This document shows, in pieces, positions 46,015 to 64,000 of a stretch of 64,000 nucleotides of DNA. Numbering within the stretch: the first letter of the stretch is position 1; each line of letters begins with the position of its first letter. The position numbers and the translations under genes were made by a program. The notes under the pieces are model-generated. The model was not told where the DNA came from and searched no databases. It was given only the letters and a program-made list of their open reading frames with translations. This DNA is from Candidatus Lindowbacteria bacterium RIFCSPLOWO2_12_FULL_62_27 (GTDB taxonomy: Bacteria > Lindowbacteria > 2-12-FULL-62-27), in contig MFPR01000004.1 of the NCBI GenBank assembly GCA_001784175.1, positions 1 to 64,000 on the forward strand, written 5' to 3'.

Positions 46015-46587
46015 TCATGGCCTCGCCTCCAACTGCGACACCTGATATCCGGTTGCGTTGATCGCCTCTTCGATCCGCGGGCGACCCACCCTGGCCGGAT
46101 CGAACCGGACCGTCACGCGGCCGGCCTTTGAGTTGGCGTCGACGTACAAAACTCCGGGCAGTTTCTGAAGCTGGGTTTTCAGCGCCACCTCGCACGTGAA
46201 GCACACCATCCCGTCAACCCCAATCACAGCGACCTCGCCGGCCGGCTGAGTCTGGGTCGCGCCCGATCCCGCGCGCATGTGATGGGTCCAGACGTTCAAC
46301 ACCAGAAAAAACGCCAACACCGCGCTTGCGCCCATGAGCACCCCGCGGGTCTTGCGCGGCGTCGACAGATCGCAGCCTGTTTCACATGCGGTTTTTGATT
46401 CTTTGCGATGCCGCATCCATCCGGCGGTCAACATCACAGCGGCAATCGCCAGCCACACCCAATGATACTTGCCGAAAAACGCCGCCAGTCCCACTCCGCC
46501 CAGCCCCAGCATGACCGCCACCAGCGGTCCGACACAACAGACCGACGCAAAAACAGACGACAGAATGCCCAGCCGCGACGATTTCAT
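46015..46587 (-). CDS. MerT-like transporter fused to an HMA domain
   Basis: ASVCCVGP in TM1, loop C...C, C-terminal GMVCFTC. Confidence 0.85.
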   Translation of the reverse strand: MKSSRLGILSSVFASVCCVGPLVAVMLGLGGVGLAAFFGKYHWVWLAIAAVMLTAGWMRHRKESKTACETGCDLSTPRKTRGVLMGASAVLAFFLVLNVWTHHMRAGSGATQTQPAGEVAVIGVDGMVCFTCEVALKTQLQKLPGVLYVDANSKAGRVTVRFDPARVGRPRIEEAINATGYQVSQLEARP

Positions 46588-47126
46588 GATGTCGTCACGC
46601 CCTTCGCTTTGCGCAACCAATCGAGCGCCGCTCGAACCACCTGCCCGACATTTCCGAGACAACACGTTCCCTGCGGGTTCCTGGTCTCGCAGGCGCAGAG
46701 GCCCGCTTTCACCTTCTGTTTGATGTCCTCCAGCACCGTGCTCTTGCCCGTCCCCGCAATTTCCGCCGCAATCGACCGCCGCGTATGGTTGAAACAGTAG
46801 CAGGCCGGAACGTCCGGCCCGGCGTCTTTTTGAAAGACCGGCGACCGAATTTCGCCCGTACGTACAGCAGTGCCGTCGCCATTGAAATACACAACCTCGC
46901 AATCCGCCGACGCGCAGAAAAAGAAACCGCTCGGCGATCCCCGTTTCTCGATGAGACCCGGATTCGCCAGAGCATGGACTGTCTCCCGCCCCACCCGTTT
47001 TCCGTTCTTGCCGCACAGAAAACAGGAAAGTTTATTGTCACCCGATGCGGCTGTTTTCGATTCGCCGGGGTCGGGCATATCCTGCGGCGAAGGACAACAT
47101 CCTCCTGTCATTTTGAGGAATTTCAT
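46584..47126 (-). CDS. Cys-rich zinc/[2Fe-2S] metallochaperone-like protein (CopZ N-terminal-like)
   Basis: CxxC, FC....C.VVYF, CYCF, CAC...NP.G.CC. Confidence 0.8.
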   Translation of the reverse strand: MKFLKMTGGCCPSPQDMPDPGESKTAASGDNKLSCFLCGKNGKRVGRETVHALANPGLIEKRGSPSGFFFCASADCEVVYFNGDGTAVRTGEIRSPVFQKDAGPDVPACYCFNHTRRSIAAEIAGTGKSTVLEDIKQKVKAGLCACETRNPQGTCCLGNVGQVVRAALDWLRKAKGVTTS

Positions 47127-47551
47127 ACCGGCCGGCCACCCAGGGTGTCGAGGCTCCGCAGCACGGGGCATGGGTCGGTCTTGCGGCGGCATCGGCAATC
47201 GCGGATCAGGCGCTCCAGCGTCCCCCGGAGGGCGTTGAGGGTCGAAATCTTGTCCTCAACCTGCCGCAGTTTCTCTCCGGCTTTTTTCAGGACCTCGTCG
47301 CAATTGGAATTTGACACGCGGAGTTTGAGGAGGGCGGACATTTCCGCCAGCGTAAACCCGAGGGTCTGCGCGTTTTTGATGAACCGGAGTTTCCTCACCG
47401 CCTCCGGCGTGTAGAGCCGGTATCCGGATTCCATGCGCTCCGCCGGGATGAGAATCCCGCGCCGCTCGTAATACCGCACGGTCTGGATGTTGACCCCGGC
47501 CTCTTTGGCCACCTCGCCGATCTTGAGAAACCGCCGCTCTTGTCGGTTCAT
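47123..47551 (-). CDS. MerR-family heavy-metal-responsive regulator
   Basis: IGEVAK.AGV...TVRYYERRG; GYRLY; Cys at SNC, DCRC and CPVL. Confidence 0.93.
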   Translation of the reverse strand: MNRQERRFLKIGEVAKEAGVNIQTVRYYERRGILIPAERMESGYRLYTPEAVRKLRFIKNAQTLGFTLAEMSALLKLRVSNSNCDEVLKKAGEKLRQVEDKISTLNALRGTLERLIRDCRCRRKTDPCPVLRSLDTLGGRPV

Positions 47552-47557
47552 GCCGGG

Positions 47558-47589
47558 AGCATACACCCTATACTATGGTATAGAGTCAA
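47558..47589 (-). promoter_or_regulatory. MerR-type promoter/operator
   Basis: TTGACT-20 nt-TATGCT with dyad ctatac-cata-gtatag next to the -35 box. Confidence 0.8.
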
Positions 47590-47636
47590 GCGTTTTCTTC
47601 ATTTTTTTTGTCGAACGATGATAAATGGGAGGACGT

Positions 47637-48371
47637 ATGGAGAAGCTGACGAGCGTGGCCGTCATTGTCCCGGCGCTGAATGAGGAGCTGTCGCTGGGGT
47701 CCGTCCTGGAGGATATCCGGGCGGTGTTGGTGTCGCGTGTGATCGTCGCGGACAATGGGAGCGTGGATCGCACCGCGGATGTGGCGCGCGCGGCCGGTGC
47801 GGAGGTGGTGTCCGCGCCGCGGCGGGGATACGGGTCGGCGTGTTTGGCGGGAGTGGCGGCGCTGAAGGACGAATCGATGGTTGTCTTCATCGACGCCGAC
47901 GGTTCCTCCGATCCCGCCGAGATGCCGGCGCTGATCGCGCCCATTGAGCGAGGCGATGCGGATTTCGTGATCGGCTCGCGCAAACTCGGCCGGGTCGAAC
48001 CCGGCGCGATGTCCCTTCCGGCGCGTGTCGGGAACCGGCTGGCGCCTTTTTTGATTCACGTCATCTGGGGATTTCGGTATACCGACCTCGGGCCGTTTCG
48101 CGCCATCCGCGTCGATGCCCTGCGGCGGCTCGGCATGCAGGATCCCGACTACGGCTGGACGGTCGAGATGCAGATCAAGGCCGTTCGGCACGGACTGAAA
48201 ATCGTGGAAGTGCCCGTGACGTGGCGAAACCGGCGCGGCGGCGCGTCCAAGATCAGCCGGACGGTTCGCGGCGTCGTGGGGGCGTCGTGCAAAATCATCT
48301 GGACGATTCTAAACTACGCCATCGACGACCGCCGCGCCGGAGACGAAGCGCGACATGGACGAGGCCTATGA
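47637..48371 (+). CDS. Glycosyltransferase family 2
   Basis: [37 protein letters not shown]. Confidence 0.9.
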
Positions 48372-49815
48372 GAACCGGCACCTCGACGAGCGGGCCGATG
48401 ACGGCGGCGAAGGCGGCGCCGGAATTGATTCCGAACACGGCAATGGCGACCGCAATGGCCAATTCGAAATTGTTGCTGGCGGCTGTAAAGGAAAGGGTCG
48501 CAGTTTTCGCGTAGTCGGCGCCCGCCAACTTGCACATCCAGAAACTGACCAGAAACATCGAGACAAAATAGATCACGAGCGGAACGGCGACGCGAAGCGC
48601 GTCCATCGGAAGTTGAACGATCAGATTGCCTTTCAGGCTGAACATCACCATGATCGTGAAGAGCAGAGCGATGAGCGTAATCGGGCTGATCCTGGGAATG
48701 AAACGGGCGTGATACCATTCCTTCCCCCTCGCCCGGATCAGAACGAATCGCGTCAGGATTCCGGCCATGAACGGAATCCCGAGGTAAATGAACACGCTTT
48801 CGGCAATTTGTCCGATGCGAACGTCCACAACGCTGCCTGACAGGCCGAACAGCGGCGGCAAGACGGCGATGAAGAACCACGCATAGAGGCTGTAGAAGAT
48901 TACCTGGAAGATGCTGTTGAACGCCACCAGACCCGCGCAGTATTCAGTGTTCCCGCCGGCCAATTCGTTCCAGACAATGACCATCGCGATGCAGCGCGCC
49001 AATCCGATCATGATCAGTCCGGTCATGTACTCGGGACGATCGCGCAGAAAGACGACGGCGAGCAGGAACATCAGGATGGGACCCACGATCCAGTTCTGAA
49101 CGAGAGAAAGGCCGAGAACCTTTTTGTTTCGGAAAACGTCGCCCAGTTCCTCGTATCGCACTTTGGCCAGCGCCGGATACATCATGAGGATGAGGCCAAA
49201 TGCGATGGGAATATTTGTTGTACCCGCCTGAAAGCTGTTCATAAACATCTCCGCACCGGGGAAGAAACGCCCGATTGCGATTCCCATGCCGACCGCGAGA
49301 AAAATCCAAAGGGTCAGGAAACGATCCAGAAACGAAAGCCGGCCGACGACGGTCTGTGAGTTCCCTCTTCGGCCGCTTTCGAGGTTCACCATGCATTCGG
49401 GCATTGTCTCCACAAACGCGCGGATTTCGTCCCGGACCCGGCGGTAATGACCCAGCGCATCTTCATCGCTCCGGGCGTCCTTTGCCAGTTTCGGAGGATC
49501 GTCGAACCCTCGATGGACGACCTTCGCTTGTCGAGGAAAGACCGGGCAAGTCTCGTGGGCGTGTGCGCAGACCGTCACGACATAATCGAATTCGATTCTC
49601 GCCAGTTCATTCAGCGTCTTGGATGTGTGGCCGCTGATATCGATGCCCGCTTCGGCCATCACCCGGACGGCGTTTGGATTCAACCCGTGCCTCTCGACGC
49701 CCGCCGAATAGGCTTCGATTTCGCTTGATTTGAGCGCCTTGACCCACCCTTCCGCCATCTGGCTGCGGCAGGAGTTGCCCGTGCACAAAAAAAGCACCCT
49801 GAGTTTGTCCGTCAT
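48295..49815 (-). CDS. acr3: ArsC arsenate reductase fused to Acr3 arsenite efflux transporter
   Basis: N-terminal CTGNSCRSQ...CPVFP...DDP; then [43 protein letters not shown]; no stop between the domains. Confidence 0.88.
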
Positions 49816-49819
49816 CCGT

Positions 49820-50161
49820 TCATCCCTTTTTTGTCGGACAGCGCGCCCCGGAAAGGCGTTTGAGGTCGCGCTTGATGCCCGGATGACGCCCGAGGCATTC
49901 GCGCAGACATCGTTGCATGAATTTCACCAGCAACCCTTGAGGCCGGACCAAACGGTAGTGCATCCAGGTGCCCTCACGCCGGCACTCGACGAACCCGGCC
50001 GACTTCAGGATGCCCAAATGTCTGGATATCTTGAAATCGGCCTCCCCCAAAGCCCCGGCCAGAGCGCACACGCAGGTCTCCCCGTGGGCGGCCAGAAGGG
50101 CCGCCAGCCGCAAGCGCGTCGGTTCTCCAAGACTCCTGAGGAGACCGGCCTCGTCTTTCAT
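49820..50161 (-). CDS. arsR: ArsR/SmtB repressor
   Basis: L.EPTRL, ETCVCAL, SRHL..LK.AG, REG.W.HY. Confidence 0.9.
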
Positions 50162-50171
50162 GCCCAACTGC

Positions 50172-50229
50172 TATATGCATATCTGCGCATATATGCATAT
50201 AATAGCCGACGGCAGGCGAGGCTGTCAAG
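50172..50229 (-). promoter_or_regulatory. ars promoter and operator
   Basis: TTGACA-18 nt-TATTAT; 11-bp inverted repeat tatatgcatat/atatgcatata. Confidence 0.75.
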
Positions 50230-50328
50230 TCACAATATGATATTCTGCGGTGAGCGCTTCGATGGAATGGAGGAATTGAAAAACGTGCGGAAACATTTGC
50301 CGGCCCGGACGCCCACGTCACGCGGGTC

Positions 50329-51825
50329 GTGAAACGGATGCTGTTGTTTCTCGGATGTTCGATGCTTTCCGTCTATGCGCTCATGGCCTGGACGGCCGCC
50401 GGAATCGGCGAACGCTCGGCCGCCGTGTTGCGGTCCATCCTTCCGCACTTCCTTCATCCGACCATCGGCCGGTGGGAGAACGGCTTCGCCCGATTTTACG
50501 ACCTACCCAACAGCGCTGTTCCCATCGGAACTTTTCTTGCCTTGCTCGCCGCCGCCTTCGTCCTCTACGTCGCCGCGGTCCATGTCATCGCACCCTCCGT
50601 CAAGCGGCGCATCCGGCGCCGCTCCGGGTACGACGACATCCCTGTCGTCGTCAAATCGCGGGATCGATCCGATTCCCTGAAACTCATCCTCGTCTTCGGT
50701 GTCGCGTTCCGGCTCGTCCTGTTTCCGACGCCGCTCATCCTCGAGAACGACCTCTATCGCTATCTCTGGGAGGGCAAAGTCGCGGCGGCCGGGATCAGCC
50801 CCTACGCCCATGCGCCCCGCGAGGCTCTCTGCGATCCGTGTGAAACGGATGTAGGACTTCGATTGTCCGGTCTGCGATCCGAGTCGTCACAAAGCGAAGC
50901 CGTCTTCGGACGCATCGGCCGAAAAGATGTTCCGGCCGTCTACCCGCCGGTTTCGATGGGGTTTTTCTCGCTGGTGGCCGCGATCCGGCCCGATTCGGAA
51001 TTGGCGATGAAAGGCTTGATATTCGGATTTGACGTCGCCACGATGATTCTGCTGGCTGTGATTTTGAAGGCGATGAACCGTCCGCCCGGCGCGGTCCTCA
51101 TCTACGCCTGGTCGCCGCTCGTCATCAAGGAATTCGCCAACAGCGGCCATCTCGACGCCATCGGTATATTTTTCCTGATGCTTGCGTTTTGGTTCTGGAT
51201 TCGACGGAGTCGGTTCGGCGTGATCGCCGGCTGGACGGGCTCGATCCTGTCCAAATATTTCGCCGTGGTGCTGGCGCCCATCTTCTGGCGGCGAATCGGG
51301 GTTACCGGCCTGATTGCGGCTGGAATCGTATCGGTGTTGTCATTCGTCCCGTTTCTTCTGATGGACACGGGCGGCATGGCGGGAATTTCCAACACGTTTT
51401 CAGGGTTCGTGACCTTCGGGCGGGAATGGAAATTCAACGCGGGTCTCTTTCGGATCATCGAGTTTGTCGTCGGAACACCAACGGCCAAATTCATCGTCAC
51501 CGCGGTGATTCTCGGTCTGATGGCGCTTCTTGCGCGAAACAGATTCGACAGCCCCCGCCGTGCGGCCCAAGCCGTCCTCATCCTGCTCTTTGCGTCGCTC
51601 GCGCTCTCCCCGATCGTCAATCCCTGGTATGTGACATGGATCGTGCCTTTCCTCTGTCTGACGATTTCTCCCGCCATGTTGGCGCTCACGGCGCTGGTCA
51701 ACGTCTCATACACCGGCTTCATCGACAGCCGGGAAATCCTCTGCCTGACAGCTCTCGAATGGGGTATCGTCTTACTGTTGGTGATCCGCGAAATTCGCCG
51801 ATGGAGATATTTATTCGGCCCATGA
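50329..51825 (+). CDS. Polytopic GT-C glycosyltransferase (GT87-like)
   Basis: [23 protein letters not shown]...E...GH.D, PWY. Confidence 0.8.
50603..50651. repeat. Intragenic GGATG-loop double hairpin (reverse orientation)
   Basis: agcggcgcatccggcgccgct ... acgacgacatccctgtcgtcgt. Confidence 0.55.
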
Positions 51826-51844
51826 TGAAAGCCGAGGTGTTGAG

Positions 51845-54058
51845 ATGACATCCCCAAGAATTGCCGGTTCGCTGCTCATCGTATTTTGTGCCGGATTCGG
51901 TCAATCGGCGTTCGCAAAGGACGTGGATACCTCAACGGCGATTTCCATGTCCTCCAAACCGTCCACGCGCAAACCCCCTGCGAAATACAACCGCCTCATC
52001 CACGAAAAAAGCCCGTATCTTTTGCAGCACGCGCACAATCCCATCTGGTGGTATTCGTGGGGCGACGAGGCGCTTGCGGCGGCCAAACGAGAAAACAAAC
52101 CGATCTTTCTCTCCATCGGCTATTCCACCTGCTACTGGTGCCATTTCATGGAGAAGGATTCCTTTGAAAAAGAGGACGTGGCGGCGGTTCTCAACGAGCA
52201 TTTCATCTCGATCAAGGTCGACCGCGAGGAGCGGCCGGACGTGGACAACATCTACATGACGGCGCTCGTGTCGATGACGGGAAGCGGCGGCTGGCCGATG
52301 TCGATGTTTTTGACGCCGGAAGGCCAACCCTTTTTCGGCGCGAGCACCATTCAGCACGACCGATTCATCGGGATTCTTGGACAAATCGCGGCGGTGTGGA
52401 AGAACGAGTCGGCGAAAATCCGTGAAAGCGGCGAGCGGGTCACCTCGGCGCTGCGGCAATATCTGAATCCCGCGGGCGGCCGGGTCAGCGTCTCCGACGC
52501 CCCAAGTGCCGCGAGCCCTGCGAGCGCCCGGCGGGACATCGGCGAGGAGGCTTTGATCTCATTTTACAACACGGCCGAAAGCCAGTTCGACAAAACGTAT
52601 GGCGGCTTCGGCGGCGGAAACAAATTTCCGAGGCCACACGTGTTCATGGCCCTGCTTCGCTACCACCGGCGCGCCGGCGATCCACAAGCCCTCAAAATTG
52701 TGGCCGAAACCTTGAAGGCCATGGCGCGGGGCGGCATCCATGATGTTCTGGTCGGCGGATTTCACCGTTACAGCGTGGACGGCAAATGGGAGGTGCCCCA
52801 TTTTGAGAAAATGCTCTACGACAACGCCGGACTCATCGTCGCGTATCTGGAGGCGTACCAGGTAACGAGGGACCCGGAGTTCGCGCGGATCGCCCGAAAG
52901 ACGATGGACTGGGTACTGGCCGAGATGACGCATCCCGCCGGCGGTTTCTACAGCGCGCAAGACGCCGGCGATTTCGGCGAGGAGGGCGACTACTACGCGT
53001 GGCGGTACGACGAGGCGCAGCAGATCCTTACGCCGGAGGAATTCGAGCATGTCCGGAAATTTTTCCGCCTGACTCCCGAAGGCAACTTCGACCACAACCG
53101 CAACGTCATCCACGTTCCGGCCGACGTTTCCTTTCCGGGCCCGGCCGCCGATACGCTCTACGCCGCCGCTCATGGCAAACTCCTGGCCATCCGCGCGAAA
53201 CGCGAACGCCCCAGGCTCGATGACAAGGTGCTGGTGGACTGGAACGGACTCATGATTGCGGCGATGGCCCGCGGGTATCAGGTGCTGGGTGATGAGAAGT
53301 ATCTGCGCGCTGCGCAAAGGGCGGCCGGATTCATCCGTAAGAACGTGACAAAAAAAGACGGCAGGCTCCATCGTCGCTGGCGGGAGGGTGAGGCGTCCAA
53401 CCGGGCGGTCGTGAACGACTACGCGTTTTTGATCCACGGCCTGATTGAACTGTACCAATCCGATTTCGATCCGCGTTGGTTTGAATGGGCGATTCAGTTG
53501 CAGGAACTCCAGGACAAGGATTTTTGGGACGAACAAAACGGCGGGTACTTTTTTGACGACGCCAAAGACGCGACGCTCTTGTCCCGCTCTAAAGAATACG
53601 ACGACATGGCGATGCCGTCGGGGAATTCCATTGCGGCGTTGAACCTCCTCCGCCTGGCCGATTTCACCTATGACGACAAATATAAAAAACGCGCCGATGA
53701 CGTCATTCGTTCGGCGGCCGGTCAGGTCGCCAGGTCTCCTTTCGCGTATGCCCAGACGCTGGTCGCTCTGGATTACGCGCTCGATCGGTCCAAGGAAATC
53801 GCCATTGCCGGAAAACTCGACGATGCGCGAACCCGGAAAATCGTCCGCGCCTTGCGTTCAAAGTTCCTGCCCAACAAAGTCGTCGCCGTTTCGGACGGCC
53901 GGAAACCCGCCGCCACGCTTATTTTGCTCGACGGCAAAACGCCGACCCGGGGCGATCCGACGGCCTATGTCTGCGAGGAGGGGGTCTGCCAACTGCCGAC
54001 GACGGACGCCGCAACGGTCCTCAAACAGGCCGAGACGCATGTGCCGATCAAAAAATAA
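51845..54058 (+). CDS. YyaL/SPATA20-like thioredoxin-domain protein
   Basis: [43 protein letters not shown]. Confidence 0.93.
52479..52543. repeat. Intragenic CCAAGTGCCG-family repeat
   Basis: 31/33 nt match to 43234-43266; both copies end gacatcggc. Confidence 0.75.
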
Positions 54059-54163
54059 ATGTAAGGCCCATTACAGACGGATCGGGGTCTGACATGATTG
54101 AGTTGGCGATTACAAAGGCTCAATATTGAGCCTTGAAGAAAGAGATTCAGAGGAGGTCCAACC

Positions 54164-54892
54164 ATGTTTTACGGCAGAGGTTTTACGGCGGACAGGGAAG
54201 TCCTGTCCCCAACGCTACAGTCTCAGAAAATTCCAGGAGGGAATTTTCTTCATTACGCGTTGGGGGCGGTTTTGATGGCGTTCGCCCTCATGCTGTTTGG
54301 CGGGCGTATCGCCATGGCGGGGGAACACCCCACGGAGCACCCGAGCGAGCATCCGGCGGCCGGCAAGGCGAAGGCGGAGCATCCGGAACATCCGGCCAAG
54401 ACGGACAAGGCGGGCAAGGCGGAAAAGTCCGTCGGTCTCAGCAAGGAGGATATGGCGGAGGCCATCTCCGGGTATGTTTCCAAGGACGCGGATTTGAAGG
54501 GCGGATATTTTCTGGTGTTTGACAAGGAGTCGGGGCAGCCGCTGGCGCTTACGCTGGAGAAAGTCCACAAGGACCGGCTGTCGAGAGTGGCCAAAGATGT
54601 GTATTTCGCCTGCGCCGATTTCCGGACGCACGACGGCAAGAAGGTCTACGATCTCGATGTGTTCATGCACGGGCCGGACAAGAAGCACCTGAAGGTCACG
54701 GAAATTTCCGTTCACAAGGAGGACGGCGACGCGCGATACGGCTGGGTGGAGAAGGATGGCGTCTGGTCGAAGAGTCCGATCGAGGGAAAGAAGGCGCCGG
54801 AGATGAAGGACTGGAAGGGAAGCGATCACGAGGGCGGATCCTCCGGTGAGCATCCGAAGGAACATCCGAGCGAGCAACCGAAGGGCAAATAG
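54164..54892 (+). CDS. Secreted hypothetical protein with EHP repeats
   Basis: Hydrophobic signal; 7 EHP units split between both termini; YFACADF core. Confidence 0.75.
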   Translation: MFYGRGFTADREVLSPTLQSQKIPGGNFLHYALGAVLMAFALMLFGGRIAMAGEHPTEHPSEHPAAGKAKAEHPEHPAKTDKAGKAEKSVGLSKEDMAEAISGYVSKDADLKGGYFLVFDKESGQPLALTLEKVHKDRLSRVAKDVYFACADFRTHDGKKVYDLDVFMHGPDKKHLKVTEISVHKEDGDARYGWVEKDGVWSKSPIEGKKAPEMKDWKGSDHEGGSSGEHPKEHPSEQPKGK

Positions 54893-54898
54893 GGTGGA

Positions 54899-55912
54899 TT
54901 GATTTTGAGCAGGAGAAAATTGGCATGGGGCGCCGTTGCCGGACTTGTGTTTTTGTCCGGCATGGCGCTCTGGCCCGCTTTTCAGCGCGCATCGCTTCGG
55001 CCTGAGGAGAATTCCACGCGTGAGGTGCGATTTCGATATCGGGTGACGATTCCCTCCGTCCCATCCTCCGCGCGGCGCGTGATGGTTTGGGCGCCCATGC
55101 CGTTTACGGACACGTATCAAACACTGAACGGCTTTGAGGTCAGGGGCCCGGCAACCTATACCATCGCGGAAGAACCCGAATACGGAAACCGCTTTCTGGT
55201 GTTCGATCTTTCTCCCGCCGCAACATCCAAGCGGGACTCGATATTGGTGGAGATCGACTATCGAGTGAGCCGGCGCAGGTACAGGGTGGTTTCAGGGACG
55301 AATGCGCACCCTCCGAACGCGAACACGGATAAATTCCTCCGGCCGTCGGGGCTGATTCCCATCGACGGCCGGATTGCCGCCGAGGCGGCGACGGTGGCCG
55401 GTCGATTCGATGATCCGATGCGGCAGGCGCGGGCGCTGTATGATCACATCGTTGAGAGCGTGCTGTACGACAAGAGCGGCCATGGTTGGGGAAAAGGCGA
55501 CGCGGTTTACGCGTGTGATTTCCGAAAAGGCAACTGCACCGATTTCCATTCTCTGTTCATCGGCGAGTCGCGGGCGCTCGGGATTCCCGCCCGGTTCGTG
55601 ATGGGATTTCCGTTGCCGGCGCGTCAGAAGAACGGTTCGATTCCGGGCTATCACTGCTGGGCCGAATTTTTTGTCGAGCCGTACGGCTGGGTTCCGATTG
55701 ACGCCTCGGAAGCGCAGAAGGACCGGTCGCGTCAGGAGGAACTATTTGGCGGCCTGGATGCCAACCGGATCGGATTCACCATCGGCCGGGACATTCGCCT
55801 GCCGGGCGCCTCGTCGGGTCCGCTCAACTACGTCATCTACCCGCACGTCGAAATCGACGGCCAGGCCTATTCGAATGTCCGCGCCGAATTCGAGTTTTCG
55901 GACGCAAATTAA
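54899..55912 (+). CDS. Transglutaminase-like domain protein
   Basis: GNCTDFH, GYHCWAE, WVPID catalytic triad. Confidence 0.88.
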   Translation: MILSRRKLAWGAVAGLVFLSGMALWPAFQRASLRPEENSTREVRFRYRVTIPSVPSSARRVMVWAPMPFTDTYQTLNGFEVRGPATYTIAEEPEYGNRFLVFDLSPAATSKRDSILVEIDYRVSRRRYRVVSGTNAHPPNANTDKFLRPSGLIPIDGRIAAEAATVAGRFDDPMRQARALYDHIVESVLYDKSGHGWGKGDAVYACDFRKGNCTDFHSLFIGESRALGIPARFVMGFPLPARQKNGSIPGYHCWAEFFVEPYGWVPIDASEAQKDRSRQEELFGGLDANRIGFTIGRDIRLPGASSGPLNYVIYPHVEIDGQAYSNVRAEFEFSDAN

Positions 55913-55944
55913 TCTTTTCGATTTCGTAATGCCGCTTACGGCGT

Positions 55945-55960
55945 TGGAATGCAATCTGCG
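55945..55960 (+). promoter_or_regulatory. Possible sigma54 promoter
   Basis: tGGaatgcaatctGC (GG-N10-GC). Confidence 0.35.
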
Positions 55961-56012
55961 GTAACCTTCAAGTAGGATGGCAGACGACGAAATGGGTTCG
56001 AGGAGGACTGTC

Positions 56013-56801
56013 ATGAACAATCATCGATATGCCGGATGGATACTTGGAATGCTCATCCTGACCGCCGGCGTGCCGACAGCATTCGCCGTGGAAAATCTCC
56101 ATTCCCCGTGGACAGGTCTTCTTCAAAAATACGTTTCTCAAAACGGGCTTGTCGCTTATTCGTCATGGAAGAAGAACGATACAGACGTTCGGAAACTCGA
56201 ACGCTATCTGCAGGCAATGTCGCCCGTGAATGCGGATTCCTTGTCCCGGCCGCAGGCGCTTGCGTATTACCTGAACCTTTACAACGCCTCGATGGTCAAG
56301 CTGGTGCTGGATCATCATCCGATCCCGAGCGTGAAAAAGATCGGAGGCTTTGGCGGGCCGTGGAAGGTTCAATTTATCGAAACGCCGAAAGGTCTGATCT
56401 CCCTGAATGACATTGAACACGGCATCCTTCGGAAAAAATTCAAGGAGCCGCGCATTCATTTCGCGCTGGTCTGCGCTTCGACCAGTTGTCCGTCGCTTCG
56501 ACTGGAGGCCTACGAGGGCCATCGAATCGACACGCAATTGGCGGACCAGGAGAAAACTTTTCTGATGGACACCGCCAAAAATCGATGGCGGATTGCCGCG
56601 TCCGGACTTCTGTCCAAAGAGGACCGGCTCGAGTTGGAGCTTTCCTCCATATTCAAATGGTTCGGCGAGGATTTCGGAGGCGAAGCAGGCGTGGTTCGGC
56701 GCGTCAGGCCCTTTCTGGATCCAGCCGGGCGCGCGCTCCTGGATCAATCCCGATATGACGTTGATTATCTTGACTACGATTGGTCACTAAACGAAAAGTG
56801 A
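56013..56801 (+). CDS. DUF547-like protein
   Basis: NLYNA, SLNDIEH, EPRIHFALVCASTSCP, SSIFKWF, YDWSLN. Confidence 0.88.
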   Translation: MNNHRYAGWILGMLILTAGVPTAFAVENLHSPWTGLLQKYVSQNGLVAYSSWKKNDTDVRKLERYLQAMSPVNADSLSRPQALAYYLNLYNASMVKLVLDHHPIPSVKKIGGFGGPWKVQFIETPKGLISLNDIEHGILRKKFKEPRIHFALVCASTSCPSLRLEAYEGHRIDTQLADQEKTFLMDTAKNRWRIAASGLLSKEDRLELELSSIFKWFGEDFGGEAGVVRRVRPFLDPAGRALLDQSRYDVDYLDYDWSLNEK

Positions 56802-56809
56802 GGCAGGCC

Positions 56810-59314
56810 ATGAACGAAGAAACAGTCCTTCACGCAATGCCATACATCAAGGAAATCGTTGATGACACCGTATTTCTTCTCGCGCCGTCCGTTCCAAACT
56901 GGATTGCCACAGATGAGCGCGGCGCGAAGATTCTCTCATTCGTGGATGGTCGCCGCACGGCTGGCCGGATCACGGATCGTTATTGCCGTGATATGAGCAT
57001 CGACCGAACGCGCGGGTGGCTCCATGTCCACACATTTCTCAAGGACGCGCTTCGCCATCAATTTGTCTCCCCGAATCCCGTCACGCCGCAGGTCTACAAA
57101 GGCCGCGCCGCATATCTCGAACCCACGGCGCTTCGGGAACTCTGGATTCACACGAACAATTCCTGCAACCTGGCCTGCACGCACTGTCTTGTTCGCTCCG
57201 GCCCGAACGGTGACGCGGGGCCTGAAACGCGGAAGATTCTGAAATGGATTGACGAGGGTCTCGCGCTCGGTGTCGAGCGATTTTATTTCACCGGCGGCGA
57301 GCCGATGGCGCGGAAGGATTTCTGGGAACTGGTCGAATATGTGACCTCGCTGGCCGAGATGGCAGTGCTGACCAACGGAACGCTTATTTCAGGCGAGCGG
57401 CTGGAGCGCCTCCGCCAGTGCGATCCGAACCTTTTGAAACTCCAGATCAGCCTCGACGGTTCGACCCCGGAAACCAATGATCCGATCCGAGGCCCCGGAA
57501 GTTTTCGCCGCGCGGTGGAGGGAATCCGAAATGCGGTCTCCGCCGGATTTTACCCAACGCTGACAACGGTTGTGACGCGCCAAAACGTGGATGATCTGTC
57601 CGGCATCGTACGGCTTGCGGCTGACCTGCGCCTCACAGCCGTTCATTTCATGTGGATGCATCTCAAAGGCCGGGCGGCCGAAAATAATCAGATGGCGGCC
57701 GGCATTCTGGAAATGATTGAAGCGGTGGAAAAAGCCCGCCGGACCGCCGCTGAACTTGGCGTCTATGTGGACAACATCGAAGCCGCAAAGACACGGATGG
57801 GCGGGCCCGCCGGGCTTAAAATGGATCTTTCCAACGCCGCCTGGGAAAGCCTCTGCATCTACTCGGACGGAGGAGTCTATCCGTCCGCCGCTACTGTTCA
57901 GGTGGCCGAGCTTCGGCTGGGCGACGCCAATCGCGCATCACTGAAAGAGATTTGGTTGACATCGCCCGTCGCGCGAAAAATGCGCGAGGCGAGCGTCGAG
58001 CAAATGGATCAATGCAGGGGATGCCGTTACAAATTCCTCTGCGGGGGCGGTGACATTGAGCACAGGTATTTTTTTGGACGAAACGGACACGCGGATAGCC
58101 GCCGGAACGGTACCGCCTTCATTGGCGACGATCCCTACTGCGGTCTCTACCAGAGTCTCATCGGAACGGCGATGCGCGAAATGGCCCGGCGCGGCGATCA
58201 ACGGAACGGTCCCAAGACCGGCTTTGACGCCCCGACCGTCTTTGCCGGAATGGGCGATGTTCGGACGCATGATTTTGGACTCCGGAACGGCCACGCCGCC
58301 GAGCCTGCGGATAAAATACGAGTTGCGGTCAAACATTCCAACTGCGTGCTGGCCTTCGATCTCGACACGTATCGCCGACCCGTTCGGGAATTTTACGGCG
58401 AAGCCGCCGAAAAACCGCAGGCCGATCTTTGCTGTCCGATCAAATACAACTCCGAATTTCTCGACCACATCCCGAAAGAGGCCATTGAAGTTTTCTACGG
58501 TTGCGGCGGTCCCATGCAGGAGGCGGACATCCGCGAAGGCCAGACAGTGGTCGATCTCGGATCGGGCGGCGGCATCGACTGTTTCATCGCCGCCAAACGC
58601 GTTGGACCGGCCGGGCGGGTGATCGGCGTCGACATGACGGACAAGATGCTGAATCTGGCCGGGCAGAATCGCGTCAAAGTCGCCGCGAATCTCGGCTATG
58701 ACAACGTCGAATTTCGAAAAGGATTTCTTGAATCGGTTCCCGTCGATGACAAATCCGCCGATCTGGTCACCTCGAACTGCGTCGTCAATCTGTCGCCGGA
58801 CAAGCGCAAGGTTTTCCGCGAAATCTGGCGGATCCTCAAGGATACGGGAACGGTTCTCATTTCCGATATCGTGACCGAGCGGGAATTGCCCCTGCACCTC
58901 GCCGTGAACAACCGGCTGGTGGGCGAATGCATCGGCCAGGCTCTGACCGAGGAGCAATTTCTCGCCTATCTCGAGCAGGCCGGATTCTACGGCATCACCG
59001 TCACCAAGAAGTTTTTCTGGAAGGATGTGGAAGGTCATCCCGTCTATTCCATCACCGTGCGCGGGCAAAAATTCGAAAAAACGAAAGGGTGCGTCTTTAT
59101 CGGTCAGCAAGCGATTTATCACGGCCCGTTCAAGTCCGTGACGGACGAGGAAGGGCACCTTTTTCCAAGAAACGAGCCTGTCGAAATCTGCACCGACACC
59201 GCCGCCAAACTCTCCGCGCCGCCTTACAACGCCTTTTTCACGGTTACGTCGCCGGACGGCAAGGTCGAGAGCGCGTGTTGTCTGGCCGGAACCGACGGCA
59301 AATCCTGTTGCTGA
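56810..59314 (+). CDS. Radical SAM/SPASM domain fused to ArsM-like methyltransferase
   Basis: CNLACTHC, TGGEP; CRGC.....CGGG...C; then LCCP, FYGCGGP, DLGSGGG, SNCVVNL, GECI; C-terminal CC...CC. Confidence 0.85.
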   Translation: MNEETVLHAMPYIKEIVDDTVFLLAPSVPNWIATDERGAKILSFVDGRRTAGRITDRYCRDMSIDRTRGWLHVHTFLKDALRHQFVSPNPVTPQVYKGRAAYLEPTALRELWIHTNNSCNLACTHCLVRSGPNGDAGPETRKILKWIDEGLALGVERFYFTGGEPMARKDFWELVEYVTSLAEMAVLTNGTLISGERLERLRQCDPNLLKLQISLDGSTPETNDPIRGPGSFRRAVEGIRNAVSAGFYPTLTTVVTRQNVDDLSGIVRLAADLRLTAVHFMWMHLKGRAAENNQMAAGILEMIEAVEKARRTAAELGVYVDNIEAAKTRMGGPAGLKMDLSNAAWESLCIYSDGGVYPSAATVQVAELRLGDANRASLKEIWLTSPVARKMREASVEQMDQCRGCRYKFLCGGGDIEHRYFFGRNGHADSRRNGTAFIGDDPYCGLYQSLIGTAMREMARRGDQRNGPKTGFDAPTVFAGMGDVRTHDFGLRNGHAAEPADKIRVAVKHSNCVLAFDLDTYRRPVREFYGEAAEKPQADLCCPIKYNSEFLDHIPKEAIEVFYGCGGPMQEADIREGQTVVDLGSGGGIDCFIAAKRVGPAGRVIGVDMTDKMLNLAGQNRVKVAANLGYDNVEFRKGFLESVPVDDKSADLVTSNCVVNLSPDKRKVFREIWRILKDTGTVLISDIVTERELPLHLAVNNRLVGECIGQALTEEQFLAYLEQAGFYGITVTKKFFWKDVEGHPVYSITVRGQKFEKTKGCVFIGQQAIYHGPFKSVTDEEGHLFPRNEPVEICTDTAAKLSAPPYNAFFTVTSPDGKVESACCLAGTDGKSCC

Positions 59315-59345
59315 ACGAGGCCGCCGGATTGGTCGCAAAATAAAT

Positions 59346-60857
59346 ATGGAGAAGATCGACCTTCGGCCGGACGACGAACATAACCGCACGCTTCTGAAAA
59401 ACGCCCGACCGCCGGACTGGATCAATCCCACGCCCGCGGCCAAATACCATCTCGTCGTGATCGGCGCCGGCACGGCGGGACTTGTGACCGCGGCCGGCGC
59501 GGCCGGACTCGGCGCGAAAGTTGCGCTTGTGGAAAAGCACCTCATGGGCGGCGATTGCCTCAACTACGGATGCGTCCCCTCCAAGGCCCTCATTCGTTCA
59601 GCCCGTGCCGCGGCGGCCGCGCGGAGTGCCGCGTCGTTCGGCGTCCAAACGGGCAACGTCTCCGTCAATTTCCCGGCCGTCATGGAACGAATGCGCCGCC
59701 TGCGCGCCGACATCAGCCCGAACGACTCGGCCACGCGTTTCAGGAAACTGGGTGTGGATGTGTTCATCGGCGCCGGCAAGTTCACCGGCTCCGACACGGT
59801 TCAGGTGGGAGATAAAACGCTCCGTTTTAAGAAAGCCGTCATCGCCACCGGCGCCCGCGCCTCGGCGCCGCCTGTTCCCGGATTGAATGAGGTCCCTCAT
59901 CTGACGAACGAAACGCTTTTCTCGCTGACCGGCCTCCCGAAACGTTTCGGCGTTATCGGCGCGGGTCCGATCGGCTGCGAGATGGCTCAAAGCTTCTCGC
60001 GTTTCGGTTCGGAGGTATATCTCGTCGAAGCATTGCACGGCATCCTGCCGCGCGAAGACCGGGATGCCGCCGGCATTGTGCAGGCTGCCCTTGCGCGCGA
60101 CGGAGTCAAATTGTGGTGTTGCGGTAAAGGCCTGAAACTTTCAAAAACGGAGGGCGGGGGTCGGATGCAAGTCGAATCCCACGGAACAAACTACGACGTG
60201 GTGGTGGACCAGCTTCTTGTGGCCGTCGGCCGTGCGCCTAACGTCGAGGGATTAAGACTGGAAACCGTGGGTGTCGAATTTGACAAAAAGGGCGTGAAAG
60301 TGAACGACCGCCTCCAAACAACCAACCCCCGCATCTTCGCCTGCGGCGACGTCTGTTCACCCTATCAGTTCACCCACGCGGCGGATTTCATGGCGCGAAT
60401 CGTAATCCAAAACGCCCTGTTCCTCGGCCGCGCCCGCGTTGGGGCGTTGACGATCCCCTGGTGCACCTACACCGATCCCGAATTGGCCCACGTGGGACTC
60501 TCCGAAACGGAAGCAAAGACCAAAAACATCCCCATCCAAACTTTTACGCAAGAACTCAAAGACGTAGATCGGGCCGTATTGGACGGCGAGCCTGAAGGCC
60601 TGGTCAAAGTGCATGTCGAACCCGGCGGCAAGCGAATCCTTGGCGCAACCATCGTCGCCGGCCATGCAGGTGAAATGATCGACGAACTGACGCTTGCGAT
60701 GAATGCCGGCCTCGGCCTTTCCGCGATCGCAAAAACCATCCATCCCTACCCCACACAGGCCGAAGCCATCCGGCGCACCGGCGATGCGTGGAACCGGACG
60801 CGGCTGACACCGGTGGCGAAAAAGCTTCTGAATCTCTGGCTGAAGATCAGCGGTTAG
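59346..60857 (+). CDS. FAD-dependent disulfide oxidoreductase (MerA/Lpd-like, lacks MerA C-terminal CC)
   Basis: GAGTAG, GGDCLNYGCVPSK, GAGPIG, HPYPT. Confidence 0.88.
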   Translation: MEKIDLRPDDEHNRTLLKNARPPDWINPTPAAKYHLVVIGAGTAGLVTAAGAAGLGAKVALVEKHLMGGDCLNYGCVPSKALIRSARAAAAARSAASFGVQTGNVSVNFPAVMERMRRLRADISPNDSATRFRKLGVDVFIGAGKFTGSDTVQVGDKTLRFKKAVIATGARASAPPVPGLNEVPHLTNETLFSLTGLPKRFGVIGAGPIGCEMAQSFSRFGSEVYLVEALHGILPREDRDAAGIVQAALARDGVKLWCCGKGLKLSKTEGGGRMQVESHGTNYDVVVDQLLVAVGRAPNVEGLRLETVGVEFDKKGVKVNDRLQTTNPRIFACGDVCSPYQFTHAADFMARIVIQNALFLGRARVGALTIPWCTYTDPELAHVGLSETEAKTKNIPIQTFTQELKDVDRAVLDGEPEGLVKVHVEPGGKRILGATIVAGHAGEMIDELTLAMNAGLGLSAIAKTIHPYPTQAEAIRRTGDAWNRTRLTPVAKKLLNLWLKISG

Positions 60858-61038: not shown

Positions 61039-62580
61039 ATGAATCGGAACGTGACTCTGGCTTGCGTTTTGACGATTTTCGTCTCCGCCTGCGGGCAGGC
61101 GCCCTCTCGCGATACTGGGCAGAAAGTTTACTCCGCCTCCTGCGCGCCGTGTCACGGCGCATCCGGCAAAGGCGACGGTGAGCTTGCGGCGTTTTTGTAT
61201 CCCCGGCCGCGCGATTTTACGCGGGGCACATACAAGATCCGGTCGGTCATGGACGCAACGCCGGCCGACGCGGACCTTCGGCGCGTGATCGAGCACGGCA
61301 TGTCGGGGTCTGCGATGCCGGCGTGGAAGGGGCGGCTTTCCGATCAGGAAATATCGTCCGTCCTTTCCTATATTAAGACGCTTGCGCCGGACGCCTTTTC
61401 AACGCCGCCGACCCAGCCGGTCAGGGTGGGCACGCCTCCGGACCCTACGCCCGAACGGCTCTCCTCCGGCAAACTCGTCTACCAAAAAATGCAGTGCGCC
61501 AAATGCCACGGCGAGCGCGGCGTGGGGGACGGGCCGTCGGCTGCGGCCCTCAAGGACGATCTGGGGATGCCCATCCCGCCGGCCGATTTCACGCTCGGGA
61601 TTTTCAAGGGCGGCGACGATCCGCGCGATATCTACACGCGATTTACGACCGGCATGCTCGGCACGCCCATGCCGAGTTTCGGAGACTTGCTGACCGACGA
61701 CGACCGCTGGAACCTCACGCTCTACGTGAAATCGCTTGCGACGGAATCGATCCTCGACGACGAACCGCAGACCATCGTGGCGGCGATGACCTCCAAAATC
61801 ACCGACAACCCCTACGACCCGGTCTGGACCAAACTTCCACCCGTGCGCGTCGCGCTCCGGCCGCTCTGGCAGCGGGCGCGGTACGCAAGGCTCGCGGAAG
61901 TGCGTGCGGCGCACGACGGCAAAACGCTTGCGGTTCATCTCGTCTGGTATGATCCGAGCGAGGACGCGAGCAACGTCGAAGTCGACCGGTTCACGGACGC
62001 GGCGGCCGTGCAGTTTCCGCTGTCGACCACGCCGGGATTTTTCGGCATGGGCGCCGTCCTGTCGCCGTCCAATATATGGCATTGGAAGGCGGACATTCAG
62101 GCGGACATCGATCTCCGAAAGGCGGACCACCGGCGCCGGGACGTCGAAACCGCCTATCCCAACATGGCGGCCGACGCGTATCCGTTTTTGGGCAAGGATT
62201 GGAGCGGCGCCGCGCATGACGACCGGCGGCGGCCCGCAAAAGATTATGACGACCCCGCGTTCCTCACGGCCTGGGCGGCCGACAATCCCCTCGCCGATCC
62301 CGAACGGAAAAGTCCCTGCACCGAATACAACGCCGAAGGACCCGGCAGCCTGACGGTCCAGCCGCATGGCCATCAGAGCATCAACGGCGCCGGCGTCTGG
62401 CGCGGCGGCGTCTGGACGCTCGTGCTCCTGCACGAGCTGCACTCCGGCGACGAGATGGACGCGATGTTCACGATGGGCGACGAGCGGCCGGTGGCGTTCG
62501 CGATCTGGGACGGCGCCGCCGGCGACCGCGACGGCCAGAAGGTCGTGTCGCAGTGGCACAAGATGGTGCTGCGGCCGTGA
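61039..62580 (+). CDS. Diheme cytochrome c fused to an EbdC/NxrC-like (DMSO reductase gamma) heme domain, lipoprotein
   Basis: VSAC lipobox; CAPCH, CAKCH; DAAAVQFP...MG, WHWKAD, AFAIWDG...RDGQK. Confidence 0.82.
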   Translation: MNRNVTLACVLTIFVSACGQAPSRDTGQKVYSASCAPCHGASGKGDGELAAFLYPRPRDFTRGTYKIRSVMDATPADADLRRVIEHGMSGSAMPAWKGRLSDQEISSVLSYIKTLAPDAFSTPPTQPVRVGTPPDPTPERLSSGKLVYQKMQCAKCHGERGVGDGPSAAALKDDLGMPIPPADFTLGIFKGGDDPRDIYTRFTTGMLGTPMPSFGDLLTDDDRWNLTLYVKSLATESILDDEPQTIVAAMTSKITDNPYDPVWTKLPPVRVALRPLWQRARYARLAEVRAAHDGKTLAVHLVWYDPSEDASNVEVDRFTDAAAVQFPLSTTPGFFGMGAVLSPSNIWHWKADIQADIDLRKADHRRRDVETAYPNMAADAYPFLGKDWSGAAHDDRRRPAKDYDDPAFLTAWAADNPLADPERKSPCTEYNAEGPGSLTVQPHGHQSINGAGVWRGGVWTLVLLHELHSGDEMDAMFTMGDERPVAFAIWDGAAGDRDGQKVVSQWHKMVLRP

Positions 62581-63503: not shown

Positions 63504-64000
63504 CCTGGTCCGTATCCCGCCGCGCGTTCCTCCAGGCCGGCAGCCTCGCCGCGCTCCTCGCCGCCTGCGGCAAATCCAATCTCCGCCAGCTCAAAGGCAT
63601 CGTGGGCGTCGAGAACCCGCTCGAATATTATCCGGAACGCGGCTGGGAAAAAGTCTATCGGGACCAGTACCGGTACGACCGTTCCTTCACCTACGTGTGC
63701 TCTCCGAACGACACCCACGCCTGCCGCGTGCGGGCCTTTGTTCGAAACGGCGTGATCGTCCGCGTCGAGCAGAATTACGACATCCAGAATTACGCCGACC
63801 TCTACGGCAACAAGGCCACGCGCAACTGGAACCCGCGGATGTGCCCCAAGGGCATGACGTTCCCCCGCCGCGTCTACGGGCCCTACCGCCTCAAGCAACC
63901 GCTCATGCGGAAGGGCTGGAAGGCATGGGCGGACGACGGCTTTCCGTATCTGACGGCGGCGCTTCGGACCAAATACAAATTCGACAGCCGCGGCGCGGAC
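63500..64000 (+). CDS. nxrA: Periplasmic nitrite oxidoreductase/nitrate reductase alpha subunit, Nitrospira/anammox type (partial)
   Basis: Manual translation: SRRAFLQ Tat...NPLEYYPERGWEKVYRDQYRYD...CSPNDTHACR...VEQNYD...DLYGNKATRNWNPRMC...RRVYGPYRL...RKGW. Confidence 0.88.
   Translation, partial: MTWSVSRRAFLQAGSLAALLAACGKSNLRQLKGIVGVENPLEYYPERGWEKVYRDQYRYDRSFTYVCSPNDTHACRVRAFVRNGVIVRVEQNYDIQNYADLYGNKATRNWNPRMCPKGMTFPRRVYGPYRLKQPLMRKGWKAWADDGFPYLTAALRTKYKFDSRGAD

Follow-up and report, generated by a model that had tools for sequence, protein, structure and literature searches.

The stretch of DNA analysed here (positions 1 to 64,000 of contig MFPR01000004.1, forward strand, 64,000 nucleotides in all and hereafter called the window) belongs to Candidatus Lindowbacteria bacterium RIFCSPLOWO2_12_FULL_62_27 and carries, at positions 56810..59314 (+), a gene encoding an 834-amino-acid fusion of an enzyme of the radical S-adenosylmethionine (SAM) type with a methyltransferase of the ArsM type. 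We consider it reasonably probable that this fusion is a bifunctional enzyme forming carbon-arsenic (C-As) bonds in an organoarsenical pathway of the arsenosugar-like or arsenolipid-like kind. Each chemical step attributed to it below is inferred from what was observed, namely its architecture, residue conservation, fold and gene context and the absence of ArsS. The fusion probably belongs to a known kind of system, the biosynthesis of organoarsenicals by a radical SAM enzyme together with ArsM, and what is probably new in it is that the radical SAM (rSAM) enzyme joined to ArsM is of the type having a SPASM domain and an RRE, the recognition element of enzymes maturing ribosomally synthesized and post-translationally modified peptides (RiPPs). 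No paper on an rSAM-SPASM/ArsM fusion was found in the full-text literature, a coverage to which subscription journals do not belong.

The open frame extends over 56780/56810-59314 (+) and gives 834 residues from the ATG at 56810, which has a GAGG 7 nt upstream and is preceded, 8 bases before it, by the stop codon (56799-56801) of a DUF547 gene. The product is identical to an existing database protein. From its N-terminus to its C-terminus it is composed of an RRE-like domain, a radical SAM core, a SPASM-like domain, a linker, an ArsM domain and a CC tail, as delimited from the frame, Pfam, NCBIfam and an AlphaFold2 model based on 48 homologues (predicted local distance difference test, pLDDT, 87.8; predicted template modelling score, pTM, 0.87). 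Pfam gave matches with Radical_SAM (PF04055, 87 bits), SPASM (PF13186, 35 bits) and Methyltransf_31 (PF13847, 110 bits). The top NCBIfam models for the C-terminal half were ArsM models without exception, and no curated NCBIfam model reached its own cut-off on either half. A search of 5.8 billion proteins listed 120 relatives, 119 of them of at least 780 amino acids, and the residue counts given below were taken from a MAFFT alignment of these 119 full-length homologues. Since the same layout was present in at least 119 full-length homologues with the named residues invariant, the architecture is real and chance can be excluded. The initial annotation, made from the sequence alone, had described an 834-amino-acid protein with radical SAM, SPASM-like and ArsM-like parts and a CC tail, and Pfam, NCBIfam and the translated motifs all agreed with it; its reading of the enzyme as one polypeptide was borne out, both sites, radical SAM and ArsM, being intact according to the domain matches and the invariant residues. 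The N-terminal RRE-like domain and, among the surrounding genes, a transglutaminase-like gene, a His-rich gene and aioBA are additions to that description.

ArsM enzymes methylate cysteine-held As(III) in a SAM-dependent reaction. In the fusion, an ArsM/AS3MT-type methyltransferase with its C-terminal domain occupies residues 531-815 (58400..59254, +), as assigned from NF008823, ArsM chains of the PDB, Foldseek and VIA. The alignment with the PDB ArsM chains covered residues 514-812 (E 9e-36), and by fold this half was matched by Foldseek at E 3e-23 and by VIA to 6cx6_A with a Z of 27.1 (root-mean-square deviation, rmsd, 6.8; 276 residues aligned; residues 539-816), so that both the class I SAM methyltransferase fold and the ArsM-specific C-terminal domain were found in the fusion. 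The cysteine motifs LCCP, YGCG, SNCV and GEC can be read in its translation, and cysteines C541, C542, C565, C657 and C707 were conserved in 119/119 homologues; we take the As(III)-binding cysteines of ArsM to be those mapped to C44, C72, C174 and C224 of CmArsM. The chain finishes with a flexible tail (residues 816-834, 59255..59311, +; pLDDT <50) ending in ACC...SCC, with the sequence ACCLAGTDGKSCC. Its terminal CC was aligned in 119/119 homologues, 114 of which have exactly CC as their end. The possibility that the tail is a feature specific to the fusion was rejected, because the stand-alone ArsM of an ArsS cluster ends likewise. Thus the ArsM-type cysteine positions that had been pointed out initially are present and invariant in the 119 homologues, and the CC...CC tail is present as well but is not particular to the fusion. 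Judging by these sequence features, the C-terminal half would be an ordinary ArsM, and methylation of As(III) by it is presumed.

The N-terminal half starts with a PqqD/RRE-like winged-helix domain (residues 1-95, 56810..57094, +), recognised by PF05402 matches in homologues and by the CteB fold. PF05402 was detected in 24 of 48 homologues, the window protein itself giving no match at E<=0.01, and the most conserved part of this domain is the motif DPxxPNWxxTDxRG. Next comes the radical SAM core (residues 109-330, 57134..57799, +; PF04055), in which the CX3CX2C motif reads CNLACTHC and is accompanied by TGGEP. Its cysteines C119, C123 and C126 were found in 119/119 homologues, and 36 of the 222 columns of the core were invariant over this set, which comes from many phyla; the conservation of CX3CX2C, TGGEP and these columns argues for a working radical enzyme. 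The SPASM-like domain (residues 331-465, 57800..58204, +) was defined by PF13186 and residue counts. Its first auxiliary site is degenerate and made up of A344, C349, S359, D415 and H418, with 'SNAAW' and 'YPS' in the place of the first auxiliary-cluster cysteines, whose loss, already indicated by the initial annotation, turned out to be family-wide over the 119 homologues. At the canonical SPASM cysteine positions 359 and 415, Ser and Asp, respectively, were present in 119/119 homologues, and therefore the seven-cysteine SPASM motif for two auxiliary [4Fe-4S] clusters is not found. C349 and H418 were likewise present in 119/119, and position 344 was Cys in 68, Gly in 29, Ala in 21 (as in the window protein) and Ser in 1. 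The second auxiliary site is mostly kept (C402 in 116, C405 in 112, C411 in 115 and C444 in 94, out of 119). Comparison by VIA superimposed CteB (5wgg_A) on model residues 10-462, RRE included, with a Z of 31.8 and an rmsd of 4.7 over 410 aligned residues, and matched the N-terminal half to anSME with a Z of 30.1; further fold matches were ChlB, SuiB, TigE and PqqE, and SkfB was among the fold relatives. A CX3CX2C core and an N-terminal RRE, as expected of RRE-rSAM-SPASM maturases, are both present, and by its modelled fold the N-terminal half is a CteB/anSME-like enzyme of the RiPP-maturase type.

Residues 466-530 (58205..58399, +), delimited by a folding test and the alignment of the 119 homologues, form a conserved linker between both halves. 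It contains the motifs Gf.aP.v...MGe (471-483) and V.t.hSnC512VLsfd (505-517), and its cysteine C512 was present in 119/119 homologues. The DPxxPNWxxTDxRG motif sits on what we take to be the strand binding leader peptides in RiPP enzymes, and because it is strongly conserved there, the fusion's own linker was tested for binding at this place. When residues 1-465 were folded against linker residues 470-540, the score was 0.87 (0.87, 0.85 and 0.87 in the individual runs), the best of three controls being 0.00. Out of 157 solved complexes, 116 attain the mark of this test, and out of 215 mismatched pairs 2 do so, counts that hold just roughly here since the test used our own alignment. The runs had at least 82% of their contacts in common, and the pLDDT of the partner was at least 54. 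Two interfaces were predicted: one of linker residues 472-484 against RRE residues 29-35 and 71-85, and another of linker residues 501-518 against the strand 327-347 and residues 359-361, 412 and 414-415, together with residues of the rSAM barrel mouth. The modelled contacts support binding of the linker to the groove of the RRE and alongside the strand of the SPASM domain. The model accordingly predicts that leader and core are built into the enzyme, an arrangement that would place the invariant Cys512 beside the degenerate auxiliary site. Among 887 small open reading frames (ORFs) within 2.5 kb of 23 fusions, no conserved free one was detected, the recurrent clusters being shadows of large neighbouring genes; this absence agrees with the picture of a built-in leader and core.

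On these grounds the following course of events can be proposed. The N-terminal half would descend from RRE-rSAM-SPASM peptide maturases and would have been re-tooled afterwards, its RRE leader groove becoming occupied by its own linker and the next linker segment taking the place of the core peptide. Cys512 would be brought in this way beside Cys349, Ser359, Asp415 and His418, at the former site of the first auxiliary Fe-S cluster. The ArsM half would produce trivalent methylarsenic, MAs(III), or dimethylarsenic, DMAs(III), from As(III) on its cysteines, and thiol exchange, perhaps via the disordered CC...CC tail, would pass the methylated As(III) on to Cys512 and Cys349. There, a SAM-derived radical would form a second kind of C-As bond. 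The radical may be 5'-deoxyadenosyl, the one that acts in ArsS, or may instead be a carbon radical that this one generates on a co-substrate, and the remaining auxiliary cluster would take the electron. As regards the surroundings, a PiT transporter and ArsC would supply arsenate, the partner oxidoreductase may be a MerA-like reductase of disulfides or of As(V) that is tethered to the membrane, and the reductase, DedA/VTT, DUF2064 and the glycosyltransferases GT2 and GT-C would process the product and place it in the membrane. The pathway would end in a compound that is associated with the membrane and resembles arsenosugars or arsenolipids. In a bolder version of this proposal, which we regard as doubtful, Cys512 and Cys349 would present methylated As(III) to a radical located on a lipid or sugar acceptor and not on 5'-deoxyadenosine.

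Three known systems can be compared with the fusion. ArsS adds the 5'-deoxyadenosyl radical to DMAs(III), after which an As-centred radical gives the electron back to the cluster; with ArsL, the radical added is 3-amino-3-carboxypropyl, and the As(III) that receives it is bound on a Cys motif at the C-terminus (PMC13598754; bioRxiv 10.64898/2026.04.29.721666). As in the pair formed by ArsM and ArsS, ArsM would work in the fusion together with a radical SAM enzyme, TIGR04282/DUF2064, TIGR04283 GT2 and DedA/VTT genes stand beside both systems, and the ArsM half shares its C-terminal domain and CC end with the ArsM of an ArsS cluster. A canonical cluster of this kind in locus L021 consists of a stand-alone ArsM, 52% identical to the ArsM half of the fusion and ending in ...TACC, an AhpD-like protein, ArsS, which with 416 bits exceeds its cut-off of 300, and TIGR04282. 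Unlike ArsS, the fusion has a radical SAM half of the RRE-SPASM fold class, is fused to ArsM and gave no Pfam match with DUF3641, the C-terminal domain of ArsS. With the arsinothricin enzymes it would have in common that a radical SAM enzyme, there ArsL, makes a C-As bond on cysteine-held trivalent arsenic near a chain end and that an ArsM methylates; the arsinothricin ArsM model NF040538 also matched the C-terminal part of the fusion, with 185 bits and thus below its cut-off of 500. No ArsL-named family appeared among the best 25 of the 91 NCBIfam matches of the fusion, no arsQ-like permease is found at the fusion, and its neighbours are instead glycosyl and lipid enzymes. Moreover, ArsL, whose C-terminal motif of the RCCLKC type comes immediately behind its radical SAM domain, presumably has no RRE or SPASM domain, unlike the fusion. 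The comparison with ArsS, ArsL and ArsM hidden Markov models that had been suggested initially therefore held for the C-terminal half, which matches ArsM models (below their cut-offs), but not for the radical SAM half, which is not ArsS and not demonstrably ArsL-like. The third system, the CteB/anSME maturases, resembles the fusion in its fold over about 450 residues including the RRE, in CX3CX2C and in the second-auxiliary-cluster motif CX2CX5C, and also in a peptide segment that occupies the RRE groove and follows the SPASM strand, a placement which is predicted in the case of the fusion. In contrast to these maturases, the 'peptide' of the fusion would be its own linker, Ser and Asp replace two first-site cysteines in 119/119 homologues, the protein is joined to ArsM and no precursor-peptide gene was found within 2.5 kb of the 23 fusions.

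The genes accompanying the fusion were studied in 23 loci, comprising the window, its close relatives L001 and L002, 12 metagenome loci and 8 loci from other genome families, by means of Pfam, NCBIfam and tblastn with seed proteins. A PiT/PHO4 transporter was present in 9/23, being adjacent in L015, L016, L017, L028, L109, L113 and L114, fused to DUF547 in L001 and found also in L018. The flavin adenine dinucleotide (FAD) oxidoreductase NF004991 occurred in seven (window, L001, L002, L018, L023, L109 and L114; 807, 769 and 735 bits in those tested, against a cut-off of 620), DedA/VTT in five (L001, L018, L019, L109 and L110) and DUF2064 in five as well (L018, L019, L110, L111 and L113), with TIGR04282 over its cut-off in L018 and L019. 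A polyprenyl-phosphate-hexose-synthase-like GT2 together with a GT87-like GT-C was seen in 4/23 (window, L018, L108 and L112), the GT2 homologues beside the fusion in the last three loci being 51-55% identical to that of the window. The DUF547, transglutaminase-like and His-rich proteins were also present in four (window, L001, L002 and L018), YyaL in three (window, L001 and, as a distant form, L115), and patatin in two (L017 and L111). In the five loci with DUF2064, the fusion stands beside this gene, in some of them along with a TIGR04283-like GT2, and the locus has no ArsS. The strongest single item of context is L018, which contains a near-complete set of the window genes around a fusion 48% identical to ours. 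On one strand, it shows in this order transglutaminase-like, His-rich, GT-C, GT2 (55% identical) and TIGR04282 genes, the fusion, a VTT-oxidoreductase (55% identical), DUF547, PiT and ArsC. Of 65 loci from the same scan that have a stand-alone ArsM-like gene, none showed PiT, the oxidoreductase, DUF547 or the transglutaminase-like protein, while VTT was found in one and DUF2064 in one, a comparison that is biased toward the fusion because the neighbour seeds came from fusion loci. The neighbourhood conservation that had been named as a check is thus seen for PiT, the oxidoreductase, VTT, DUF2064 and GT2 with GT-C among the 23 loci. The glycosyl and lipid neighbours behind the suggestion of a glycosylated or lipid-linked product recur in independent lineages (GT2 with GT-C in 4/23, TIGR04282/TIGR04283, DedA/VTT, patatin and one homologue fused to GT2). 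Other observations in these loci were a large GT21/Glyco_tranf_2_3-type membrane GT2, similar to lipid glycosyltransferases, between the fusion and the GT-C/GT2 pair (L108, 3894-5462, -; L112, 7560-9020, -), a GH113 gene in L112, and a B12-type radical SAM gene in 2/23, near the most divergent fusions (33-37% identity; L027, 12331-13812, +; L115, 3933-5318, +).

Several data weigh against the proposed function. The radical SAM half was rejected as an ArsS, since TIGR04167, whose cut-off is 300, gave 47.9 bits, confined to model positions 3-148, which correspond to the generic radical SAM core. The ArsM half stayed below the cut-offs of NF008823 (232.2 vs 263), NF038099 (161 vs 400) and NF040538 (185 vs 500), although the cut-off of NF008823 excludes this whole ArsM subgroup, as the stand-alone ArsM beside ArsS in L021 is also below it (236.5 vs 263). 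The window GT2 cannot be counted as a TIGR04283 member (43 bits, below the cut-off), and the only TIGR04282 gene of the own genome, on contig C38, has no evident partners and no link with the fusion. Among the 23 loci, L020 and L025 have none of the recurrent neighbours, and in L024 and L026 MsrPQ-like genes are the sole neighbours; for many loci such absence is uninformative, because the contigs are short and five loci measure less than 5 kb. In the folding test, both chains were pieces of one protein, and as RRE-leader complexes of CteB and SuiB have already been solved, the pass may reflect likeness and not fact; the rough calibration of the test and the bias of the neighbour comparison add to these points. 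Finally, ArsS was found in 0/11 fusion-bearing genomes, against 67/401 of the genomes sampled, a difference that is not significant, the expected number being about 1.8 and part of the genomes being related to each other, and so a replacement of ArsS by the fusion, or a mutual exclusion of both, is suggestive only. In favour of the proposed function, on the other hand, no ArsS and no further ArsM-like gene was found in the own genome, which is 94% complete, the fusion being the sole ArsM-like gene. A VTT-methyltransferase pair on contig C10 of this genome was discarded as having no link with the fusion.

Other explanations of the fusion were also considered. The protein could act as a detoxifying ArsM only, with a radical SAM half that is regulatory, redox-supplying or vestigial and makes no C-As bond of its own. 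The ArsM half is indeed the best conserved part of the protein, with a mean pairwise identity of 0.73 vs 0.44-0.56 for the N-terminal domains, and it is the only ArsM-like one of the genome and located beside arsR-arsC/acr3. Nevertheless, the invariant CX3CX2C, TGGEP and core columns argue that the radical enzyme is a working one, the two halves have become paired in either gene order and the neighbours suggest that a product is processed further, and for these reasons we find this explanation unlikely. It could also be thought that the fusion is a RiPP-type maturase, whose RRE recruits a separate peptide or protein that the radical SAM half modifies, by cross-linking or in another way, while methylation of a thiol, or the loading of this peptide with arsenic, would fall to the ArsM-like half. 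Against the full RRE-rSAM-SPASM fold shared with CteB, SuiB, TigE and SkfB and the PqqD domain of half of the homologues scanned (24/48) stand the lack of any conserved free small ORF near the fusions, an RRE groove that is predicted to be filled by the conserved linker, the replacement of two canonical SPASM cysteines throughout the family, and neighbours that are transporters, reductases and glycosyltransferases, and not the peptidases or exporters typical of RiPPs. All this makes a maturase of separate peptides quite unlikely. Very unlikely, in our opinion, is that the substrate is another metalloid or chalcogen (Sb, Se or Te) and not arsenic. It would fit with this that several NCBIfam ArsM relatives are selenoproteins without an assigned role, that PiT-type carriers are not strictly specific and that MerR and MerT/HMA genes are nearby, but all the As(III)-binding cysteines of ArsM are kept, ArsR, ArsC and Acr3 are adjacent, aioBA lies in the window, ArsC stands beside the L018 cluster and the accessory families are those tied to ArsS by NCBIfam. 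The arsenic link proposed by the initial annotation is strong, as it is sustained by the ArsM cysteines, the divergent arsR-arsC/acr3 genes, aioBA in the window and PiT and ArsC beside the relatives, and formation of C-As bonds by the fusion is the reading that we prefer.

The neighbours named in the initial annotation (DUF547, a disulfide reductase, GT2, GT-C, YyaL and an ars operon) were all confirmed by Pfam, NCBIfam, HTH_5 or the ESM Atlas. Downstream of the fusion is the gene of a MerA-like FAD pyridine-nucleotide-disulfide oxidoreductase (59346..60857, +; NF004991, 807 bits against a cut-off of 620), with a CLNYGC redox pair and no C-terminal CC. It was discarded as MerA itself because TIGR02053 gave 385 against a cut-off of 454 and the C-terminus is without Cys. 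Upstream, and on the same strand, are the genes of the DUF547 protein (55977..56801, +; Pfam and sequence), which carries a hydrophobic segment at its N-terminus and the motif CASTSC; of a transglutaminase-like (Transglut_core) protein (54899..55912, +; Pfam), kept in L001, L002 and L018; and of a His/Pro-rich protein of 242 amino acids with one N-terminal hydrophobic segment (54164..54892, +), which belongs to no Pfam or NCBIfam family and has counterparts in L001, L002 and, weakly, L018. They are preceded by a YyaL/DUF255 gene (51845..54058, +; Pfam and sequence), whose product combines thioredoxin-like and (alpha/alpha)6 domains with an N-terminal signal-like segment, and by the gene of a GT87/MptA_B-like GT-C membrane glycosyltransferase (50329..51825, +) with about 10 hydrophobic segments and no Pfam match, assigned from the ESM Atlas (GT87/MptA_B, score 0.99, TM 0.80-0.87). 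The GT2 (47625..48371, +; PF00535) resembles polyprenyl-phosphate hexose synthases of the AglJ/DPM kind and was below the cut-offs of both TIGR04182 (137 bits) and TIGR04283 (43 bits).

The arsR-arsC/acr3 genes are divergent from the plus-strand operon starting at 50329, with a spacer of 161 bp. The first gene of this ars operon encodes an ArsR-family repressor (49820..50167, -; PF01022 HTH_5, 31.2 against a cut-off of 22), and the other an arsenate reductase and arsenite efflux protein in one chain, a fusion of ArsC of the low-molecular-weight (LMW) phosphatase type with Acr3 (48295..49815, -; TIGR00832, 451 vs 282.8; TIGR02691, 147, below the cut-off). At 50172..50201, 5 bp upstream of the arsR start, lies a near-perfect palindrome of 30 bp (93% complementary, TATATGCATATCTGC/GCATATATGCATATA), which overlaps a sigma-70-like promoter on the minus strand (TTGACA-18-TATTAT, 11 of 12 matching). 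From its sequence it is a candidate ArsR operator, which may be shared with the divergent plus-strand operon. An ORF at 49730-50332 (+) was considered spurious, as it has no family, is of low complexity and has arsR on its opposite strand. No Rfam family was over threshold within the 64-kb window.

The arsenite oxidase genes aioB (Rieske subunit) and aioA (29318-32583, +; TIGR02694, 112.5 vs 95.65; TIGR02693, 428 vs 359) are located 25 kb upstream inside the same window, followed by a c-type cytochrome (region to 33414). Directly upstream of them are two genes of MauG-like di-haem peroxidases (26794-29314), and downstream those of a sensor histidine kinase, a sigma-54 response regulator and a DUF3179 protein (34303-38998, +); DUF3179 also adjoins the fusion in L023, and a stand-alone ArsM with VTT in L022. 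A second, stand-alone ArsC-like gene of the LMW-phosphatase type (21759-22238, +; TIGR02691, 111 bits, below the cut-off) has a sigma-54 regulator on one side and a regulator of the Crp family on the other. At 46015-47566 (-), and also at 6696-8208 of L002, the cluster is accompanied by the genes of a MerR-family regulator and of a membrane protein similar to MerT/HMA. Between the aio and ars regions there is an SNF2-family helicase with DUF3670 (40658-43453), and a PIN-domain gene and two Phd/YefM antitoxin-like genes were found at 33738-34136, 39106-39351 and 44006-44296. At the end of the window (61039-64000, +) a di-haem cytochrome c is fused to a haem b domain like the gamma subunit of ethylbenzene dehydrogenase (type II DMSO-reductase family), and after it come a Cys-rich ORF of 316 amino acids and the beginning of a protein that matched molybdopterin Fe4S4 weakly; this region may encode another oxyanion oxidoreductase.

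The family of the fusion is widespread. All but two of the listed relatives are 49-62% identical to the window protein, and those named belong to Scalindua and Brocadiales, Zixibacteria, Latescibacteria, Nitrospinota, Acidobacteria and Thermodesulfobacteriota, the family as a whole ranging over many phyla of uncultured anaerobes and including at least one archaeon. In databases they are called just 'methyltransferase domain-containing protein' or 'radical SAM protein with SPASM domain'. A search with the N-terminal half alone gave 209 representatives (50%-identity clustering, E<=1e-30), and the fusion was present in 11/401 sampled genomes, 8 of these 11 being outside the family of the window's own genome; a single-protein scan of genome contigs yielded close relatives only. 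Variant architectures were seen on scanning 19 representatives of the clade of the N-terminal half. All seven long forms (980-1079 amino acids; P0240, P0272, P0280, P0284, P0287, P0257 and P0279) have a C-terminal DUF5714 after rSAM-ArsM, one representative (P0276) is an rSAM-ArsM with a directly fused GT2 domain, three (P0260, P0265 and P0269) show the reverse order ArsM-rSAM-SPASM, and another three, of 455-464 amino acids, are stand-alone rSAM-SPASM proteins, two of them with a PqqD match. Five short homologues were rejected as true stand-alone N-terminal halves, one being cut inside the ArsM domain and four apparently being frameshifted fusions.

To our knowledge, ArsS and ArsL are the only radical SAM enzymes known to make carbon-arsenic bonds. 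If the function proposed is true, the fusion would be a third and unrelated lineage of radical SAM enzymes forming these bonds, in which the scaffold of a RiPP maturase, by taking its peptide ligand into its own chain and surrendering an Fe-S site, would have been converted to the small-molecule chemistry of a metalloid. What the window contributes to this picture is the periplasmic and membrane gene set kept with L018, the divergent ArsR control region and the co-location of aioBA, along with the family-wide residue counts and the predicted intramolecular arrangement of leader and core. Should the bolder version hold, it would mean a new C-As reaction and a missing route to membrane compounds of the arsenolipid type in anaerobes such as Scalindua, Nitrospirota and Zixibacteria. 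The origin of arsenolipids and complex organoarsenicals outside cyanobacteria and algae would become a question that can be addressed with a single clonable gene.

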